Source: Patescibacteria group bacterium (GTDB lineage Bacteria > Patescibacteriota > Patescibacteriia > Patescibacteriales > UBA12465). From it: a stretch of DNA of 64,000 nt. The notes beneath the pieces were generated by a model. That model was not told the DNA's origin. It saw only the letters and a list, made by a program, of their open reading frames with translations, and searched no databases. Position 1 is the first letter of the stretch. The number at the start of each line of letters is the position of its first letter. This document shows positions 3,815-36,253 of this stretch, one piece after another. The DNA lies in contig JBAZJV010000003.1 in the NCBI GenBank assembly GCA_041651095.1, positions 16,293 to 80,292 of the forward strand. Direction: 5' to 3'. The translations under genes and the position numbers were made by a program.

Positions 3815-4816
3815 ATGATCAAGCTAAAAAAAGCTTATACTCGGTATCGCAGCGCTTTTTATTCCTATTTCTGGTATAAAGAGGAAAGCGAATCGCTGCG
3901 CCGTTTTGGCTATAAATTGAGAAATTTTTTGGCAGTTTTTCATGATGGCAAATTTGATGTCTATTATCAGGAAACGGTTCCTCGCGAGATCGAAAGAGTG
4001 ATCGCCAAGAATTTTCAACGGCCTCGTTTATTAGAATATTTGAAGAGGCGGATAACCGAAGAATCGAAAATTCTCCAGCCGTATCTAGCGGGCCAGAAAA
4101 AGATCGGAAATCCGCGGACCTTTCGTTTCTTCTATGATCATGCTCTCAAGTTTTGGGTAGCGATGACGCCGTTCTTCTTCATCGACGCGCCCGGCGTCCG
4201 TCAGGAGATCAAAGACCAAGTTTTATCGATCAGGCTTAGCAATGAACACTATTCTCAAAATATTGATAAGATTTTTCAAAAATATCTAAAGGGTTATTTC
4301 CGCGATAAACATTATATCTTCGCCACCCCTAAGGATGTTTTTTCTAAAGCCGGCCGACAGAAAGTCCTGGCGACTTTGGCCGAACGTCAGCCGGGAATGT
4401 TCATCTATGATGGCGAAATCCATCGGCTCGAAGAATTAGATCGCTTCTTGTCCAAAAAGCGAATATCCCTAGGCCGGGAAAAGCTGGGCGGTGGCCAGGC
4501 GATAAAAGGTTTGGCTACTTTTGACTTCGGAACCGTCAGCGGTACGGTTAAGGTCATCAAGAACATCAGTGATTTTAAGAATTTTTCCGCCGGTCAGGTA
4601 TTGGTTACGGAAATGACTTCGCCTAATTTTTTGCCGCTAATGAAGAAGGCGCGGGCCATAATAACCGATGAAGGCGGCCTGACCTGCCATGCGGCGATAG
4701 TTTCCCGGGAATTGAAGATTCCTTGCATCATCGGCGTCAGGATAGCGACTCAAGCTCTGCAAGACGGCGAACGAGTTGAAATGAAATCCGGTAATGGTAT
4801 AATTAAAATCTTATGA
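3815..4816 (+). CDS. PEP-utilising enzyme mobile (phosphohistidine swivel) domain protein
   Basis: 333 aa. The C-terminal GGLTCHAAIVSRELKIPCIIG matches the PEP-utilising enzyme phosphohistidine signature. The N-terminal 230 aa are unassigned. The stop overlaps the cca start (ATGA). Confidence 0.6.
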   Translation: MIKLKKAYTRYRSAFYSYFWYKEESESLRRFGYKLRNFLAVFHDGKFDVYYQETVPREIERVIAKNFQRPRLLEYLKRRITEESKILQPYLAGQKKIGNPRTFRFFYDHALKFWVAMTPFFFIDAPGVRQEIKDQVLSIRLSNEHYSQNIDKIFQKYLKGYFRDKHYIFATPKDVFSKAGRQKVLATLAERQPGMFIYDGEIHRLEELDRFLSKKRISLGREKLGGGQAIKGLATFDFGTVSGTVKVIKNISDFKNFSAGQVLVTEMTSPNFLPLMKKARAIITDEGGLTCHAAIVSRELKIPCIIGVRIATQALQDGERVEMKSGNGIIKIL

Positions 4817-30997: not shown

Positions 30998-31005
30998 ATA
31001 TTCAT

Positions 31006-31146
31006 ATGGAAGGAGTCTTTAAATTTTTATTCGGTCTGGCGGTCGTCATCGCCGCTATGACTGTTATCGGGATCTTCTTGTTGATCTGCAAGGTCATATT
31101 GATGTTCCAGCCGCAGATTTACATCATGGGCCTGGTAATCAGCTGA
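31006..31146 (+). CDS. Possible 46-aa single-TM micro-protein
   Basis: Hand-translated as MEGVFKFLFGLAVVIAAMTVIGIFLLICKVILMFQPQIYIMGLVIS. Below the ORF-track cutoff, with no clear RBS. Followed by a hairpin. Confidence 0.25.
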   Translation: MEGVFKFLFGLAVVIAAMTVIGIFLLICKVILMFQPQIYIMGLVIS

Positions 31147-31165
31147 TCCGGCCGACCTGGCCTAT

Positions 31166-31188
31166 AGGGGGTTCTTAGGCACCCCCCT
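31166..31188 (+). terminator. Intrinsic terminator-like hairpin closing the alr/ftsQ-like unit
   Basis: AGGGGG-ttcttaggca-CCCCCC followed by TTT. Confidence 0.45.
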
Positions 31189-31212
31189 TTATTTAGTCTA
31201 TTAATAGGTGTA

Positions 31213-31222
31213 TTAATATACA
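31213..31222 (+). repeat. Left copy of the 10-bp direct repeat TTAATATACA (candidate att core)
   Basis: Exact match to 36262-36271. It is embedded in a dyad GTGTATTAA...TTAAACAC. Confidence 0.4.
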
Positions 31223-31321
31223 CTTTTAAACACTTTTCGACTTTCTGTTTCGTTCTCGTGGGGTAGGGAACTGAAAATTTTAAAAATTTGATTTGATTTT
31301 CTTATGATTTTTAAAGCGCTA

Positions 31322-31361
31322 AAAAATCCGCGTTTCCGGCGCGAGCCGGAAGCGGATTTTT
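31322..31361. other. Long imperfect hairpin in noncoding region
   Basis: AAAAATCCGCGTTTCCGGC-gcga-GCCGGAAGCGGATTTTT. Confidence 0.6.
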
Positions 31362-31484
31362 CTGTGGTTTGATCAGAACCTTGTTTTAAAACCATATAAC
31401 ACGATTTAAGATTTTTGTCAATAGTTGCTGATGTTTCATGGATACTTTTAGTCTAGCGTTTTAGCTCTCAAAAGTCAACCCCTG

Positions 31485-31517
31485 AAAATCGGCCGATTTT
31501 TGCTCGGGCCGATTTTT
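31485..31517. repeat. 16-bp perfect palindrome plus short direct repeat
   Basis: AAAATCGGCCGATTTT (31485-31500). GGCCGATTTTT is repeated at 31491-31501 and 31507-31517. Confidence 0.6.
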
Positions 31518-31526
31518 TTTAAATAC

Positions 31527-31562
31527 AAAAAACCTAGGCTCTTTCCCAAGGCCCGGTTTTTT
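31527..31562 (-). terminator. Probable terminator of the minus-strand phage-like operon
   Basis: AAAAAACC-ta-GGC ... GCC-c-GGTTTTTT. On the minus strand the hairpin is followed by a T-run. It lies about 100 nt after the Zot-like stop. Confidence 0.5.
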
Positions 31563-31660
31563 GCAGTTTATAATCACGTTAGTGATTTAGATTTTTCCAG
31601 TCCGCCGGGATATCGTCAGCCTTAGCCGCAGAGTCCCGGCGTCCATGTTTCTAACGGTGT

Positions 31661-32515
31661 CTATGTGTTCTTCGGTCTGTTTTTCAATTGGTTTTCGCTT
31701 ATCGCTCCCCGGTACGGTTTCAATACTTCCGTTTTTTTGTAGGGTATCCACTTGATTTCCTGTTCCTTGATTTCCAGATCGTAGTCCGAGTCGTACATCC
31801 CGCTAGGTATCGTTTTTAATATTTCTTCCTTATGCTTCGGGCAGTGTTTTTCCCCTTCCTGTCTTCCCGCGCATTTTTCACAGAATTTATGCTCTAATTC
31901 TATTTTTTTTTCGTTCAATTCCTTGTGTATTAACTTCTCTTTTTGGTACCACTTTATCCTTCTTTTTCCTCCTACCTGTTTGAAATCCCCTTCAATTCCT
32001 TCCCCTAATTCCCAGCCATATGACAGTTTTTTCAGTTCTTGGTACGTCATTTGCTGGTAGCTGATCCTTAGGAAGTCTTTTTTTATTATTTTTCCGATCC
32101 ACTCCATTATTCCGGCCTCGATTTTTTCACACAGTATCCATTCGTCGACCACTATCCAAGCTGATTTCGCCACCAGGCTGATATCCTGCGTCGTTCCGTA
32201 GATGTCGACGTGGTGGTGTCGGTGGAGCTGGAAGAACCGTCTGATATTGCCGCTTTCCTGTTCCCAGGCCCGGGGTTCCATTACTTGTCCGATTTCGTCC
32301 ATGACCAGCACGCAGTTCCGCAGCGTCGGCGCCAGCTCCTCAAACTCTTCGGCCGTGAAAAAATGGAGGTTCGGTCCCTTCCAGTTGATCCAGAAGTTGC
32401 ACCAGACTTCCTGTCCGTCGAGCAAATGCGGCAGCAGGTCTTCTTCTACCAGTCCGAGGCTTTTGCCCGATCCCGGTAGCCCCAGTCTTATTGAAAATGT
32501 TGATCCTTCTATCAT
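31661..32515 (-). CDS. Zot / inovirus pI-like assembly ATPase (no TM domain; C-terminal Cys/His cluster)
   Basis: 284 aa. Walker A GLPGSGKS at aa 12-19 and Walker B VLVMDEIG. FFQLHRHHHVDIYGTTQDISLVAKSA parallels M13 pI WFLHARKLGWDIIFLVQDLSIVDKQA. C-terminal CEKCAGRQEGEKHCPKH. Confidence 0.72.
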   Translation of the reverse strand: MIEGSTFSIRLGLPGSGKSLGLVEEDLLPHLLDGQEVWCNFWINWKGPNLHFFTAEEFEELAPTLRNCVLVMDEIGQVMEPRAWEQESGNIRRFFQLHRHHHVDIYGTTQDISLVAKSAWIVVDEWILCEKIEAGIMEWIGKIIKKDFLRISYQQMTYQELKKLSYGWELGEGIEGDFKQVGGKRRIKWYQKEKLIHKELNEKKIELEHKFCEKCAGRQEGEKHCPKHKEEILKTIPSGMYDSDYDLEIKEQEIKWIPYKKTEVLKPYRGAISENQLKNRPKNT

Positions 32516-32522
32516 ATTTTTT

Positions 32523-32632
32523 CGCTCCGCGCGACGGGATTTGGGTCGTTTCTGGCCGCCGTCCTTCGGAGCGATTTGCCAGCCCGCGCGACGGGATTTG
32601 GGTCGTTTCTGGCCGCCGTCCTTCGGGCTGGC
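32523..32632. repeat. Tandem twin hairpins with identical 43-nt core (32527-32569, 32584-32626)
   Basis: Copy A has basal stem CGCTCCG/CGGAGCG. Copy B has basal stem GCCAGCCCG/CGGGCTGGC. Both share an inner stem GACGG/CCGTC and a 21-nt loop. The copies are 4 nt apart. Confidence 0.9.
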
Positions 32633-32641
32633 AGCTCTTTG

Positions 32642-32905
32642 TTAAATTTTCGTCGCCGCCGGAACGCCTGTTCGGCCCTCACGGCCGCTCACAGGCGTTG
32701 CTGCCGGCGGTAGCTCTCTTTTTTTGATTTCCTCTAAGGCGTCCAAATGTCTCACCCAGCGTTCCATCCGGTCCCGTAGGTCCTTTTGCTCGGCCTTCCA
32801 TTCCACGTACCAATCCGCCCAGAATTTAGCCCCTAGGCCGCAAAATACGCCGAAGATGAAAGCGATTAAGTACCACATACTAATTTCTAAAAAAACTGGC
32901 GACAA
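32642..32905 (-). CDS. Small membrane protein (N-terminal TM, charged helical tail)
   Basis: 87 aa. Overlaps the upstream ORF by 26 nt. Part of the co-directional module. Confidence 0.4.
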   Translation of the reverse strand: MSPVFLEISMWYLIAFIFGVFCGLGAKFWADWYVEWKAEQKDLRDRMERWVRHLDALEEIKKRELPPAATPVSGREGRTGVPAATKI

Positions 32906-33155
32906 ACAGGTAGGCTTTGTAGGCGTACCAAGCCACCAGCAGTCCCAGGTCTATTCCGATCCAAAAATACAGCCCGAAGGCGCCGTTTATATCCCAAATA
33001 AAATTCGAGAGCATAAGCAGCCGCCGCGCCAAAGCCAAAGCCACCGTCATGATCGTCCAGATCGGCGTCAGCAGGTAGTTCACCGTGGTTCCCAAGATCG
33101 CCAGGCCCCCCAGTATTATTCCCGCCATTACGACTTGTTTTAAAGTGTTGAACAT
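32880..33155 (-). CDS. pVI-like small 3-TM protein
   Basis: 91 aa with three hydrophobic helices. It follows the pIII-like gene with a 1-nt gap, as gene VI follows gene III in Ff phages. Confidence 0.45.
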   Translation of the reverse strand: MFNTLKQVVMAGIILGGLAILGTTVNYLLTPIWTIMTVALALARRLLMLSNFIWDINGAFGLYFWIGIDLGLLVAWYAYKAYLFVASFFRN

Positions 33156-33156
33156 A

Positions 33157-34593
33157 TCAGTCTTTTTGGTGGGACACTTTCCAGCTAAAAATTATAATCC
33201 CTATCAGCGACAAGGTAGCCATGACGTACGGCGACAATCCTCTTATATTTTCAAAAACGTCCTCAACGTCTTCGTTGCCGGCCGCCAGCCCGGGTCCCCA
33301 AAGGGTGATCGTGGTCGTGGTGCTTGTCCAGGAGGCCGGCATGGTCAGTTTCACGTCGCCGCCTTCATCCCCGGCCAACCAAGAAAGAGTTGACGGTATT
33401 GTCGCCGTCGCCGAGTCGGTCCAGCATTGGTTTATCCTCGTAGCCAGCGAGAAAGGGAAGATGATTTTTGTCGAATTAATCAGTCCACCTATGCCCGATT
33501 TCACTTGGTCCCTTAATCCAAAATAGATTTTGTACCAGGTGAAAACGGAATTGCATTTTATTTCAGTCCACCAGTCCGTTTCCGCCCACTCAGCGTCTGT
33601 GCAGGCTATCCGGTGTGCCGTGCCGGCTGGATCGTCTTCTGACATATACCCGACGCTGAATTCCCAGTCCGTCGTGGTGGCTGGCGAGAAATTTTGGTCC
33701 ACGCTCGCGACGTTCGGTGAGCTGGTCGGGTGGTAGAAACTGTCGTCAATATATATCGTCGTTGTTCCGATTAACCCCGACCCGTTGTATATCGCCGTGA
33801 AGTTTGGGCTGCTTGAAGCGTGGCAGTCGACCAAGCCGCCGCGCCAGGGCCCCAAAGGATCGATCCCGGTCGAAGTCGCGGAGCTGATCGTCATTTGGTA
33901 GTAGCCGGAGCCGTATTGGGCGCAGGTTCCGCTTAGCGTCAAAATTTGGCTGATTGAGTCGAAGCTTTGGGAAGTTATCGCGAGCGTCGTTCCGCCGGCG
34001 GCCGGATCCGTGTAGACCTTAAAAGCGAAATCTCGATTGGTGAGCGTCCAGCCGTAGCCCTCATAATAGAGCCGGCCGTCGGCGTATTTGTCCCCGTCGT
34101 AGTTGCTGGCTCTAATGTTCATACCAGTTGCGTCCGCGTCCGTTTCTTTTACTTTTATCAGATAATAATGGCCGGCCGTGGTAGGGTAGGGGGTTGAGAA
34201 GTCAAAATCGTACCAGCCAGTGGTTGAGAAGTCCGTATAGTCCCGGCCCGCGCTTTCTTGCGGCGTGTCTGTGCAGCTTAATGAGGTTAAGCTGCTTATT
34301 TCGCAAAGTTCGACGCTAAAAGTATTCGGCCCGTGCACGCCTAGTATGTTTAGCGACACCATTGACACATTCGTTGAGCTGGCCGTAAAGGACTGGTATT
34401 TTAAAGTGTTTCCCGAAGCGTTAAAAAGCATTTCGTCCGCATCACTAAAAGTCTGTTCAATAGACACCTCGTCAGCCGCCAGAGCTGAACGAGGCGAGGA
34501 TAAGGCCAATAATAACCCAAAGAGCAAAGCCGCCGCCAAAACCCCACCAGAAGCTAGACCAGTCCATAAATTTTTTATCTTAGATATTGGCAC
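33157..34593 (-). CDS. pIII-like secreted, C-terminally anchored protein (candidate receptor-binding minor coat protein)
   Basis: 478 aa. Signal peptide ending ALA|ADE, a Ser/Thr/Gly-rich beta-type body with several Cys, and a C-terminal TM (YVMATLSLIGIIIFSW) with a short basic tail. Confidence 0.5.
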   Translation of the reverse strand: MPISKIKNLWTGLASGGVLAAALLFGLLLALSSPRSALAADEVSIEQTFSDADEMLFNASGNTLKYQSFTASSTNVSMVSLNILGVHGPNTFSVELCEISSLTSLSCTDTPQESAGRDYTDFSTTGWYDFDFSTPYPTTAGHYYLIKVKETDADATGMNIRASNYDGDKYADGRLYYEGYGWTLTNRDFAFKVYTDPAAGGTTLAITSQSFDSISQILTLSGTCAQYGSGYYQMTISSATSTGIDPLGPWRGGLVDCHASSSPNFTAIYNGSGLIGTTTIYIDDSFYHPTSSPNVASVDQNFSPATTTDWEFSVGYMSEDDPAGTAHRIACTDAEWAETDWWTEIKCNSVFTWYKIYFGLRDQVKSGIGGLINSTKIIFPFSLATRINQCWTDSATATIPSTLSWLAGDEGGDVKLTMPASWTSTTTTITLWGPGLAAGNEDVEDVFENIRGLSPYVMATLSLIGIIIFSWKVSHQKD

Positions 34594-34820
34594 AGATTTT
34601 GAGCAAAATTGATCATTATTTTTTCATTAAAAATCGTCCACCAAGCAAAAAAAACTCCTAGAAAAACCGCCCATTTAAAACCGATGAAAAAGCTATCGAA
34701 TAGGGTGTAGATAGCCGCTCTTTTCCAGGTCATTTTTTTGCCCTGGTAATCATAAGCTCTCGTCGGGTGCTGGCTTTCCATATAGTCCTCGGCGTATTTT
34801 TCGAATTCTTTTTTTTTCAT
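34575..34820 (-). CDS. Small membrane protein
   Basis: 81 aa with a C-terminal hydrophobic hairpin. Overlaps both neighbouring ORFs. Confidence 0.4.
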   Translation of the reverse strand: MKKKEFEKYAEDYMESQHPTRAYDYQGKKMTWKRAAIYTLFDSFFIGFKWAVFLGVFFAWWTIFNEKIMINFAQNLCQYLR

Positions 34821-35002
34821 AAAATTTTTTTGCCTTCAATTCTAAAAATTAAACAAAAAATTATAATATAGGCCCACCAATTTGGTGTGTAGCTCGAAAG
34901 AGTATTCAACAAAATAGTCATTATTACCCCTATTGCTGTTAGCGGCGTTAGTTCTATCCAAATTTTCATAATTTTTGCGCCGCAGGCGTGTGCCGCAGGC
35001 AT
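34817..35002 (-). CDS. Small 2-TM protein
   Basis: 61 aa. Its start abuts the stop of the Zn-ribbon ORF. An internal MKIW start is possible. Confidence 0.35.
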   Translation of the reverse strand: MPAAHACGAKIMKIWIELTPLTAIGVIMTILLNTLSSYTPNWWAYIIIFCLIFRIEGKKIL

Positions 35003-35170
35003 TTATTTTTGTTTGCTTTCGCCGTAAATTTTTAAAAGCCAGTCTATTGCCACCATTCCGCCGCCGCAATTAGAGCAAATGATTTCCAGTTTTCCCGGTG
35101 TCGGCGGCCAGAGTTTTATCTCTTTGTCTTCTATATTTCGGCAGTTTAAGCAAATTTGTTTTTGTTTCAT
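35003..35170 (-). CDS. 55-aa zinc-ribbon protein
   Basis: Hand-translated as MKQKQICLNCRNIEDKEIKLWPPTPGKLEIICSNCGGGMVAIDWLLKIYGESKQK, with a CxxC...CxxC pattern. Below the ORF-track cutoff. Confidence 0.4.
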   Translation of the reverse strand: MKQKQICLNCRNIEDKEIKLWPPTPGKLEIICSNCGGGMVAIDWLLKIYGESKQK

Positions 35171-35171
35171 A

Positions 35172-35192
35172 TTCGCTATATAGGGAAGCGAA
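35172..35192. repeat. Inverted repeat TTCGCT-N9-AGCGAA sharing the arm motif of the dif-like site
   Basis: TTCGCT (35172-35177) and AGCGAA(G) (35187-35193). Compare the dif-like arms CTTCGCT and TGCGAAG at 36256-36281. Confidence 0.45.
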
Positions 35193-35197
35193 GCGTT

Positions 35198-35334
35198 TTT
35201 TAAAAATTGAGCGAAGCTAGTGGAGCAGGCTCTCGTCTGCTGAAATGCCGTCCATGGGGCAGAGGAAAAGCACCTCCGTCTTTATCCCCCGGCAGGGCTT
35301 ATGTTCAGCAGACGAGAACCGTCAATTTTTAAAA
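35198..35334. other. 137-nt three-tier imperfect hairpin
   Basis: 13-bp outer stem (35198-35210 with 35322-35334). 13-bp inner stem (35232-35244 with 35304-35316). Apical TGCCG..GGGG / CCCC-CGGCA pairing (35246-35259 with 35286-35294). Confidence 0.75.
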
Positions 35335-35340
35335 TAGGGA

Positions 35341-35358
35341 AGTGGGGCGTCCCCCACT
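35341..35358 (-). terminator. Hairpin immediately after the coat-protein stop
   Basis: AGTGGGG-cgtc-CCCCACT, starting 5 nt after the stop codon. The T-rich tract on the minus strand follows after 4 nt. Confidence 0.45.
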
Positions 35359-35362
35359 GAAC

Positions 35363-35647
35363 CTATCTGCGCCGCCGGCCGCCGGTGATCGCGCCCCTTA
35401 TCTTGATGTAGGCCCAAGTCAGAGCGGCGATCGTTAAGCCGATAAGCAGCGCCTTGCCCCAGGTGGTTGCCAAAAACGACATCGTTGCTGGAGTGTTGTC
35501 GTTTATTGCCAAAGTTCCTGTTGCTAAGGCCGCTATGTAATCAGCGTCCGCGGCTGCGAGGGCCTTCTGGCCCAAAATGGCAAAACCTAAGCCGAAAAGT
35601 CCTAGGCTGAAAGCCACCTTTGCCGCGTACTTTTTCAATATTTTCAT
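35363..35647 (-). CDS. pVIII-like major coat protein precursor
   Basis: 94 aa. Signal peptide MKILKKYAAKVAFSLGLFGLGFAILGQKALA. Mature protein has an acidic start AADADY, one TM (WGKALLIGLTIAALTWAYI) and a basic tail KIRGAITGGRRRR. Strong SD (AAGGAGGTGA) 5 nt upstream. Confidence 0.65.
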   Translation of the reverse strand: MKILKKYAAKVAFSLGLFGLGFAILGQKALAAADADYIAALATGTLAINDNTPATMSFLATTWGKALLIGLTIAALTWAYIKIRGAITGGRRRR

Positions 35648-35693
35648 GCTTCACCTCCTTTCTAGAAAAATTTTATTAAAAAATTTTTTAACT

Positions 35694-35780
35694 TTAAGGT
35701 ATCCATCGGATTAGAAGCCCTAGTCCGACCATAAGGGTTTCAAAAGTCCACCAGTCTTGGAATAATAAGGTCATTTCCAT
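35694..35780 (-). CDS. Possible 28-aa hydrophobic micro-protein (pVII/pIX-sized)
   Basis: Hand-translated as MEMTLLFQDWWTFETLMVGLGLLIRWIP. Supported only by position and size. Confidence 0.2.
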   Translation of the reverse strand: MEMTLLFQDWWTFETLMVGLGLLIRWIP

Positions 35781-35841
35781 ATGGTTGCTGTTAGACGGTC
35801 GCCGGCCCAACGGAGGGCCTCGATCATCAGTATTATTAAAA

Positions 35842-36066
35842 TCAAACCTGACGGCTGCTCCATATTTTTCTTTTTCGGTAGTTCGCGATTGCGTATACCG
35901 TGATTATTCCAAGAATGATTTTTCCGATCAGATACACCGTTCCAAACCAGTCATAAGTAATAATGGTATTTATTTGCTTTTCGGCGCAAAAATTGCCATT
36001 TGAGCTTTCGGTCAGACACAGTTCGGTCGTCGTCGCTCTTTGTTGGTTGTATAGCATAGAGGGCAT
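35842..36066 (-). CDS. Small protein with C-terminal TM and basic tail
   Basis: 74 aa ending ...VYLIGKIILGIITVYAIANYRKRK.... First ORF of the co-directional module. Confidence 0.4.
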   Translation of the reverse strand: MPSMLYNQQRATTTELCLTESSNGNFCAEKQINTIITYDWFGTVYLIGKIILGIITVYAIANYRKRKIWSSRQV

Positions 36067-36198
36067 TTTAAGACGCCTGCGGCAGCACGCGGCTAGAAGC
36101 CGCGCGGCTTAAAATTAGGCACCAGAAATCACGCATGGCTTCGTTACATTTTACTATCTTTTTATTGGCGATTATGCCATAATTTAGATGAAGATTTT

Positions 36199-36213
36199 TA
36201 CTTCGCATAATGT
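36199..36213 (+). repeat. Inverted partial copy of the dif-like site (arm plus 3 nt of centre)
   Basis: TACTTCGCATAATGT is the exact reverse complement of 36269-36283. The downstream half (CGATGGTTTTTG) is degenerate. Confidence 0.7.
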
Positions 36214-36253
36214 CGATGGTTTTTGTTTATTGGCTTGTTTTTATCTAAAAAAA

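Follow-up and report, generated by a model that had tools for sequence, protein, structure and literature searches.

Stem-loops placed between the cistrons of an operon can set the differential expression of its genes, as do the repetitive extragenic palindromic (REP) hairpins between malE and malF of E. coli and the hairpins of the puf operon. In phages with single-stranded DNA (ssDNA), hairpins can also mark an origin on the DNA itself: the minus-strand origin of phage Ff is formed by the paired hairpins B and C of its intergenic region, whose stems mimic -35 and -10 elements for RNA polymerase priming, and the complementary-strand origins of G4 and phiX174 lie in the F-G intergenic space, in the Microviridae a short gap between structural genes. 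To our knowledge, metagenomes are the only source of filamentous phages of Patescibacteria, and it has not been described how their assembly genes are controlled or how their DNA is marked for packaging or replication. In the integrative inoviruses of Xanthomonas (phiLf group), the packaging signal (PS) is a GC hairpin of 20-26 nt with conserved and essential loop bases, which sometimes lies within genes (bioRxiv 10.1101/2023.12.30.573655). It has a GC stem of 7-8 bp whose consensus reads GGX(A/-)CCG(C/T)G and a loop of 6-10 nt with a conserved T and C; a genetic interaction links it with gI, and a small protein associated with the membrane binds it (10.1101/2024.03.19.585677). Here we describe a hairpin element in a 64,000-nt stretch of DNA (the window) from a Patescibacteria metagenome-assembled genome. 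The element belongs to an inovirus-like prophage of ~5.2 kb (~31,000-36,250), with all genes on the minus strand, and lies between the gene of a small membrane protein and that of the Zot/pI-like assembly ATPase (Zot hereafter). We show that a hairpin conserved in structure and variable in sequence occupies this fixed junction upstream of Zot in a clade of related phages, and that it has expanded to three hairpins in the window.

The comparison set consisted of 13 related phage genomes with Zot 60-68% identical. Homologs of Zot with 58-68% identity lie nearly all on contigs of 4.6-5.6 kb with the same gene order, presumably complete small inovirus genomes, and no Rep/HUH gene could be recognised in the genomes of this clade (L001, L005 and L038-L051; ~6-8 genes each). 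An earlier description of the window made from its letters, the sequence-only reading, had asked whether homologous phages lack any structure at this position, and whether they keep pairing with different stem sequences. A clear GC-rich hairpin is present at the junction in 10 of the 13 relatives, each fold with a z-score (z) of -2.8 to -5.6, as a single and usually two-tier hairpin per junction. In the typical layout the stop codon of the small open reading frame (ORF) is followed by TTTA and by an outer stem (7-8 bp) that begins with CC; then come a purine bulge of 2-3 nt, an inner stem (4-6 bp), a loop (3-4 nt), the end of the outer stem in GG, CA, an A-rich spacer and the ATG of Zot. The outer stems all differ in sequence, and all are paired; their 5' arms are as follows.

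L001: CCAAGCAG
L005: GCGGCCGA
L038 and L039: CCGCAAGA
L041: CCCGTCC
L042: CCGGCCC
L044: CCTATCC
L051: CCCGACGG
L043: GCGGGC
L046: ATCGCCCGT (within a 12-bp stem)
L050: GCCTGG

Counted over six basal pairs in 14 hairpins (those of the 10 relatives, a small one in L040, and hairpins A, B and C of the window), 84 of 84 cells are paired; shuffles of the 3' partners from one hairpin to another give 47 +/- 3.6. The complete pairing follows in part from the construction, since the stems were defined by folding each sequence. The count comes from a hand-registered stem table rather than a covariance model because MAFFT was unable to register 7-bp against 8-bp stems, or the bulges. The informative points of the comparison are that the arms are lineage-specific and that every fold is better than its own shuffles. 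The stem pairs are almost purely Watson-Crick, with 3 G.U among 194 pairs. Loops of 3 nt occur in 6 of the 14 hairpins (TTT in four, plus GAA and GCC); the loops of the relatives and of hairpin C measure 3-5 nt, those of A and B 21 nt, and that of L043 falls in the range of 17-21 nt. In 7 of the 13 junction hairpins the foot stands 10 nt from the ATG (range 6-18), and the spacer sequences differ. The same genomes carry canonical terminators, a hairpin plus a T-run, after the coat gene and after Zot.

The departures from this pattern are instructive. L047 has a weak fold only (z -1.5), and L040 has a small hairpin within the end of the small ORF, the junction as a whole reaching z -1.7. In L051 the small ORF extends across the hairpin to a stop codon 1 nt short of the ATG of Zot, which shows that the two genes are normally translationally coupled; in L050 the stop codon of the small ORF, TAG, stands in the loop of the hairpin. 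L045 has the small ORF and no hairpin, its stop codon overlapping the start of Zot (ATGA). L007 and L048 have a different small ORF in place of the usual one, no hairpin, and a gap of 4 nt. In the clade at 40% identity (L002-L004, L008-L037) the stop codon of the pVI-like gene is followed by 4 nt and the ATG, with no hairpin at the site. A descriptor scan of the hairpin-less genomes found no relocated two-tier hairpin. Because it is absent from L045, L007 and L048, the hairpin is, judging from this distribution, dispensable.

The junction also varies among close relatives. L038 and L039 have identical Zot and small proteins, and in L038 a second, AT-rich hairpin, GATATTTTTA...TAAAAATATC, has been inserted after the family hairpin and before the ATG of Zot (L038 4230-4286 vs L039 483-494). 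Because these two genomes, too, differ by a second hairpin, gain of a tandem hairpin at the junction has occurred at least twice. In L040 (946-1020), Zot starts with the canonical MIE, continues with an in-frame insertion of ~22 codons and resumes with the conserved IEGS; the insertion holds a perfect palindrome, TTCGGGCCCGAA, another palindrome gained at this junction. We also considered a recombination breakpoint at the hairpin, for which the flanking proteins give identities too low and noisy for a decision.

The features at the junction in the window are as follows.

31661-32515, minus strand: Zot/pI-like assembly ATPase gene, 284 aa (Pfam Zot 4.5e-13; PHROG 'Zot-like toxin' 1.6e-15)
32522-32574, minus strand: hairpin A (by folding, -23.4 kcal/mol, z -3.1)
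32525-32528, minus strand: GGAG resembling a Shine-Dalgarno (SD) sequence, paired within the 3' arm of hairpin A; the Zot ATG follows 9 nt downstream
32527-32569, strand not applicable: core copy 1, 43 nt, exact (by repeat comparison)
32537-32560, minus strand: 24-nt motif GGCGGCCAGAAACGACCCAAATCC in hairpin A, covering the loop and part of the inner stem; 22/24 in L040
32577-32633, minus strand: hairpin B (by folding, -30.6 kcal/mol, z -3.4)
32584-32626, strand not applicable: core copy 2, 43 nt, exact (by repeat comparison)
32594-32617, minus strand: 24-nt motif GGCGGCCAGAAACGACCCAAATCC in hairpin B, the same as in A
32642-32878, minus strand: small membrane-protein gene, 78 aa from the ATG at 32878 (ORF and alignment of the relatives; in the ORF list, 87 aa from a TTG at 32905)
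32656-32710, minus strand: hairpin C (by folding, -39.8 kcal/mol, z -4.9)

Most of what the sequence-only reading saw at this locus was borne out. The two copies of the core, read on the plus strand at a spacing of 57 nt, are an exact direct repeat, for which no match of the kind arises in any of 100 shuffles of the window, and each copy lies in a hairpin of its own. The inner stem GACGG/CCGTC is common to hairpins A and B, as are the 3x3 internal loop and the loop of 21 nt. They are the minimum-energy and the centroid structures with RNA and with DNA parameters on both strands, and the hairpins hold in the 151-nt region (z -3.3 for RNA on the minus strand, -3.25 for DNA on the plus strand and -2.7 for DNA on the minus strand). 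The GC content of the block is 0.68 vs 0.47 for the prophage. Several details had to be corrected: the hairpins are 2 nt apart and not 4, each stem having one more T-A pair; the GGAG 9 nt before the ATG is an SD-like sequence where none had been seen; and the upstream ORF, given as 87 aa, is most likely one of 78 aa that starts at ATG 32878. The foot of hairpin A is 6-7 nt from the ATG of Zot, and hairpin B is followed by CAAAT, as the family hairpins of the relatives are.

The basal stems of the two copies, TCGCTCCG/CGGAGCGA in A and TGCCAGCCCG/CGGGCTGGCA in B, are each perfectly self-complementary, as first described, and mutually unrelated: past the CCG/CGG of the core there is no residual similarity between TCGCT/AGCGA and TGCCAGC/GCTGGCA. 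From these two stems the sequence-only reading had argued for covariation and hence for selection. On two copies alone the argument is weak; its conclusion gains support from the stems of the other lineages. The basal stems of A and B would by themselves be weak evidence of selection, because there are no stepwise intermediates and intrastrand template switching could make the same picture. Separate origins of the two copies, or extension of a palindrome by template switching, most likely explain the different stems better than compensation pair by pair.

The third hairpin, C, is stronger than A and B and had been missed, so that the structured block measures ~190 nt and not ~110 nt. It consists of three tiers (CCGCCGG / AACGCCTGT / CGGCC-GTGAG-GGCCG) and is the most stable 70-nt window of the prophage. 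The 246-nt region with A, B and C folds at -97.3 kcal/mol (z -4.8) as RNA and with z -5.1 as DNA, the three hairpins folding independently. Hairpin C lies inside a 3' extension of the small ORF and codes for part of the tail of the small protein, which is conserved only over its first ~52 residues; in the relatives a family of ~52 aa adjoins the hairpin. The tip of C, GGCC-GTGAG-GGCC, resembles the L050 tip, GGCC-GTTA-GGCC, with GAG replacing the stop codon TAG. Because of this match hairpin C is probably the ancestral family hairpin.

Sequence conservation is confined to the 24-nt loop, which is not palindromic. In all the DNA that was fetched, the motif occurs outside the window only in L040, at the same junction and 22/24 identical (92%). 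Beside the motif, the small proteins of the window and L040 share 45% amino acid identity and the flanking coding DNA ~65% (by eye, from a pairwise alignment); structural proteins within the clade are 27-49% identical. Because the identity of the loop is far above that of the small protein and the flanking DNA, the loop is either under purifying selection or recently transferred, and it may be bound by a trans-acting factor. In L040 the motif is not within a good stem (z -1.7). Pairing of the loop with other phage RNA was considered and rejected: the best duplexes, at ~-21 kcal/mol, are within background, and the window and L040 have no common target.

The core does not behave as a dispersed repeat, which was the sequence-only reading's own concern. 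With up to 3 mismatches allowed, the 64-kb window contains no further copy of it or of its inner 31 nt, and blastn-short of the core in the window returned nothing past chance 8-14-mers. Among three sequence collections, which do not include the host genome, there was no exact match for a 24-mer of the core in genome_contigs and metagenome_contigs or for a 31-mer in viral_contigs, and a degenerate 23-mer had no match in viral_contigs. A dispersed palindromic repeat of the REP, BIME or MITE type is rejected, as the window has only the two local copies and the three collections gave no exact match to parts of the core (the remainder of the 234-kb host contig lying outside these). Rfam 15 gave generic hairpin noise on the region (9-16 bits vs thresholds of 39-100), and ARAGORN found no tRNA and no tmRNA there; these results speak against a tRNA or tmRNA fragment, for which ...CAAATCCCGTCGCGCGG looks by eye like a T-arm plus an acceptor 3' end and CGACGGGATTTG like the 5' part of E. 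coli tmRNA. A coding repeat was also considered, the 57-nt period being 19 codons and a 56-aa ORF (32682-32512) ending in ATGA on the start of Zot; it is rejected because the frame is closed in L040 and hence not conserved. Nor is this a CRISPR array, which needs at least 3 repeats with spacers of ~26-72 nt: there are only two repeats, and the 43-nt cores are 14 nt apart. A rho-independent terminator is rejected on the 21-nt loops of A and B (vs 3-8 nt), the hairpins of the relatives and C having short ones. No U-tract follows the hairpins in the sense direction in the window or in any relative, the sequence being A-rich instead, and a terminator scan of the minus strand at 32500-32720 came back empty. 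Neither the region nor the Zot protein has a match in the GenBank phage collection. With no match there or in Rfam, the element is covered by no described family; in kind, as an intergenic hairpin of a filamentous phage, it belongs to a familiar class.

We favor, with a probability of roughly 40%, an intercistronic RNA stem-loop that would keep the level of Zot below that of the upstream genes and that has been amplified in this prophage. The sequence-only reading had offered three roles without choosing among them: an ssDNA signal, a throttle on the ATPase gene and a tandem operator; of these the throttle fits best at the locus, where hairpin A holds the GGAG. Hairpins A, B and C would be a lineage-specific amplification of the conserved stem-loop between the small membrane-protein gene and the ATPase gene. 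Zot is the last gene of a pIII-pVI-small-Zot block, and the stem-loop would partition that polycistronic sense RNA, acting as a barrier to 3'->5' decay and to upstream ribosomes or RNA polymerase, so that the output of Zot would be lower than that of the upstream proteins. Over-expression of gp1 of Ff, a homolog of Zot, is toxic to the host cell (PMC5408679). In the relatives the single hairpin ends ~10 nt before the ATG and leaves the A-rich leader free. In the prophage three hairpins stand in series (-40, -31 and -23 kcal/mol), the last of them, A, pairing the only SD-like GGAG with its foot 6-7 nt from the ATG; initiation on Zot should therefore need A to be melted, behind two further helices, a tighter lock that is plausible for an integrated prophage.

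An RNA role is favored by the position of the block on the coding strand between two genes of the same strand, without a terminator tail, by its place ahead of the last gene of the block, and by its dispensability in some lineages, with the overlapping stop and start codons that hairpin-less L045 has instead. Several observations weigh against it. The start codon and A-rich leader are not sequestered in the relatives; a spacing of 10 nt could as well be the nearest position that does not interfere, which would suit any element in the gap; and the antisense strand folds equally well. Stems that are almost purely Watson-Crick, strand symmetry and frequent 3-nt loops are traits seen more typically in DNA hairpins than in RNA structures under selection. 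In addition, a passive barrier does not need a loop of conserved sequence, and L040, which shares the loop motif, lacks a good hairpin around it.

Many of the same observations would suit a signal in ssDNA, in which one or more hairpins on the packaged (+) strand act as a packaging signal or as the complementary-strand (minus-strand) origin. We regard this reading as the main alternative, possible but less probable than the RNA role. It would account for the near absence of G.U pairs, the GC-rich and strand-symmetric stems and the frequent 3-nt loops (TTT, GAA), and for the keeping of the hairpin even within coding sequence (L051, L050 and hairpin C). The folds are good with DNA parameters, including the coding-sense strand, which is generic and does not discriminate. 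Moreover, no other strong hairpin beyond the main non-coding region lacks a T-run, and this one occurs together with the gene of the small membrane protein and borders on the gI homolog. By analogy with PSB15, the small membrane protein could be a partner that binds the PS, and the 24-nt loop could be the recognition site of a phage or host protein. However, a signal of this kind fits poorly with the absence of the hairpin from L045, L007 and L048, where no relocated copy was detected, and from the site in the 40%-identity clade. Each genome also has a separate non-coding region of 0.6-1.2 kb with several hairpins, the usual home of origins and packaging signals. Furthermore, the sequence of the outer stem is not conserved, the copy number varies (1, 2 in L038 and 3 here), and the Xanthomonas stem consensus was not found by eye in the stems of A and B, the only two stems inspected, without a motif scan. 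The fuller proposal, namely the packaging signal or complementary-strand origin of an undescribed, clade of very small Patescibacteria inoviruses (4.7-5.5 kb) in which no Rep gene is recognisable, with the ~52-aa membrane protein as its partner and the 24-nt loop as its recognition site, we would call doubtful.

It is unlikely that the hairpins have no function and mark a hot spot of an ssDNA replicon at which palindromes form and grow by slipped replication or by intrastrand template switching and are tolerated, the twin then being a recent duplication of the core whose flanks were turned into palindromes. Such an origin would explain why the junction varies independently among close relatives, as in the extra AT-rich hairpin of L038 vs L039 and the GC palindrome TTCGGGCCCGAA inserted just inside the 5' end of Zot in L040, why the stems are perfectly complementary with almost no G.U, and why no similarity is left between the basal stems of A and B, each of which would have been copied from its own flank. 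It does not readily explain a hairpin at the same place in 10 of 13 relatives, in genomes constrained in size whose structural proteins have diverged to 27-49% identity, nor the conserved distance from foot to ATG, nor a loop that is 92% identical between the window and L040 when the coding DNA around it is at ~65%. A mobile hairpin that leaves target-site duplications is rejected: flanking direct repeats, measured as the longest common substring of the flanks against shuffles in 10 relatives, are not significant (P = 0.017 in L001 alone, 0.06 to 0.95 in the others).

A transcript of the plus strand, starting from a promoter-like sequence at 32491-32520 and running from hairpin A to the T-rich tracts after B or C, is very improbable; it would yield an antisense small RNA or an antisense terminator block opposite the start of Zot. 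The sequence TTGAAA-N16-CATATT does score 9/12 on the plus strand, and T-rich tracts do follow B (CTCTTTGTTAAATTTT) and C (TCTCTTTTTTTGATTT) there. However, the match is weak and the region has 16 such sites vs 7.5 expected by chance; the site is made of conserved N-terminal codons of Zot and was not found in L001, L041 or L005; the T-runs lie opposite Lys-rich codons of the small ORF; and the hairpins of the relatives have no usable antisense T-tract. Least probable of all is a tandem operator in double-stranded DNA for a dimeric regulator, which two identical 43-nt units with dyad symmetry beside a gene start might suggest, but no regulator gene was recognised in these 6-8-gene genomes, the symmetric arms differ entirely among lineages, and the conserved loop has no palindrome.

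The prophage around the element has the gene order of a 74-aa ORF, a coat-like protein of 94 aa (signal peptide, transmembrane segment and GGRRRR tail), three small ORFs, a pIII-like protein of 478 aa, a pVI-like protein of 91 aa, the small membrane protein, the hairpins and Zot. An identical Zot protein is listed for a Patescibacteria metagenome-assembled genome (contig of 233,933 nt). By eye, Zot has an ATPase domain and a C-terminal CxxC...CPxH motif resembling a zinc ribbon, with no hydrophobic segment, unlike pI of Ff; the small protein (32642-32878) has an N-terminal transmembrane helix followed by a charged helix, and the two together may stand in for a membrane-anchored pI. A strong SD sequence is found only at the coat gene (aaaggaggtg), most host and phage genes having none. 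Directly after the coat gene, at 35228-35320 and 35338-35358, lie a strong 17-bp inverted repeat and a hairpin-plus-T-run terminator; the SD of the coat gene and the terminator downstream agree with an Ff-like design of high coat expression followed by termination.

At the edge of the prophage (36255-36282, minus strand) there is a dif-like site, ACTTCGCATAATGTATATTAAGCGAAGT, to be compared with the dif of E. coli, GCGCATAATGTATATTATG. An inverted half-site, TACTTCGCATAATGT (36199-36216), lies 40 nt from it, and the gene of a tyrosine recombinase of the XerC/D type (36395-37351, plus strand; Pfam Phage_integrase 4.6e-42) adjoins these sites. The prophage looks to have integrated at dif through Xer recombination, like CTXphi; no second dif-like site was found at its other end. 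In non-coding DNA of L001 (4111-4180; also L006 4421-4452), a hairpin, AACTTCGC...GCGAAGTT, has the arms of the dif-like site of the window and is a candidate for a folded attP; TTAAGCGAGT lies near this hairpin in the non-coding region of L001. At 2.6 kb from the prophage (38920-39426, minus strand) the window encodes a 168-aa protein with an N-terminus like that of type IV pilins (NGFTLIELLVVIAIIGLL), a class that is possibly that of the inovirus receptor.

Between Zot and a conserved ORF of 60-74 aa, genomes of the clade have 0.6-1.2 kb of non-coding DNA rich in hairpins, and in several lineages a hairpin just upstream of this ORF contains the motif TGC(T/C)GCCGCAGGCG(T), a candidate for the origin or nick region. 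It is found at these sites.

36071-36100 of the window: TGC(T/C)GCCGCAGGCG(T) motif
L001, ~4296-4320: the same motif
L005, ~316-340: the same motif
L038, 1157-1194: the same motif

The clade at 40% identity has a near-invariant hairpin, TTTTCTTTTTTGGC-GGCA-TCCCC-TTG-GGGGA-GCCAAAAAAGAAAA, with a change of GGC/GCC to CGGC/GCCG, which looks like a bidirectional terminator or another cis element. It lies ~600 nt past the end of Zot.

L002, 2321-2365: near-invariant hairpin
L003, 1702-1748: near-invariant hairpin
L008-L037: near-invariant hairpin

An element conserved in position and structure beside the assembly ATPase gene in at least 10 lineages gives these phages a concrete cis-element, and nature has supplied an allelic series of zero, one, two and three hairpins, some of them within coding sequence. 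If the hairpin only tunes expression, it is ordinary biology. If it were a signal for packaging or priming, it would help to build vectors and to recognise active phages in an uncultured bacterial radiation, and as an ssDNA signal it would be the first cis-acting one defined for a phage of the candidate phyla radiation.

Set beside the systems with which we began, the element shares something with each. Like a rho-independent terminator it is a GC-rich hairpin at the end of a cistron, unlike one it has no sense U-tract in any lineage, and the loops of A and B are too long. It resembles the minus-strand origin of Ff and the origins of G4 and phiX174 in placing adjacent hairpins in the DNA of an ssDNA phage, but it differs from that of Ff in that a scan of the minus strand found no promoter-like -35/-10 hexamers within the stems and that the relatives have a single hairpin. 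Like the PS of Ff and of the phiLf group of Xanthomonas, it is a small hairpin rich in GC, on the strand that an inovirus packages, and its structure is conserved more than its sequence; as in Xanthomonas it may lie in coding sequence, and where the Xanthomonas PS is linked to gI, the hairpin here abuts the gI homolog. Unlike the PS of Ff, it is not next to the origin or the main intergenic region, lying ~0.9 kb from the large non-coding region after Zot, and unlike the PS of filamentous phages it is missing from some close relatives; its loops, at 3-5 nt in the relatives and C and 17-21 nt in L043, A and B, fall outside the 6-10 nt of the Xanthomonas PS. In contrast to REP sequences, it is not a dispersed family but occurs at one fixed junction, once per phage genome. 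With the hairpins of malE-malF and puf it nevertheless shares a GC-rich stem-loop without a U-tract between cistrons of the same strand, which may be in tandem, and a position upstream of the gene whose product is expected in the smallest amount.

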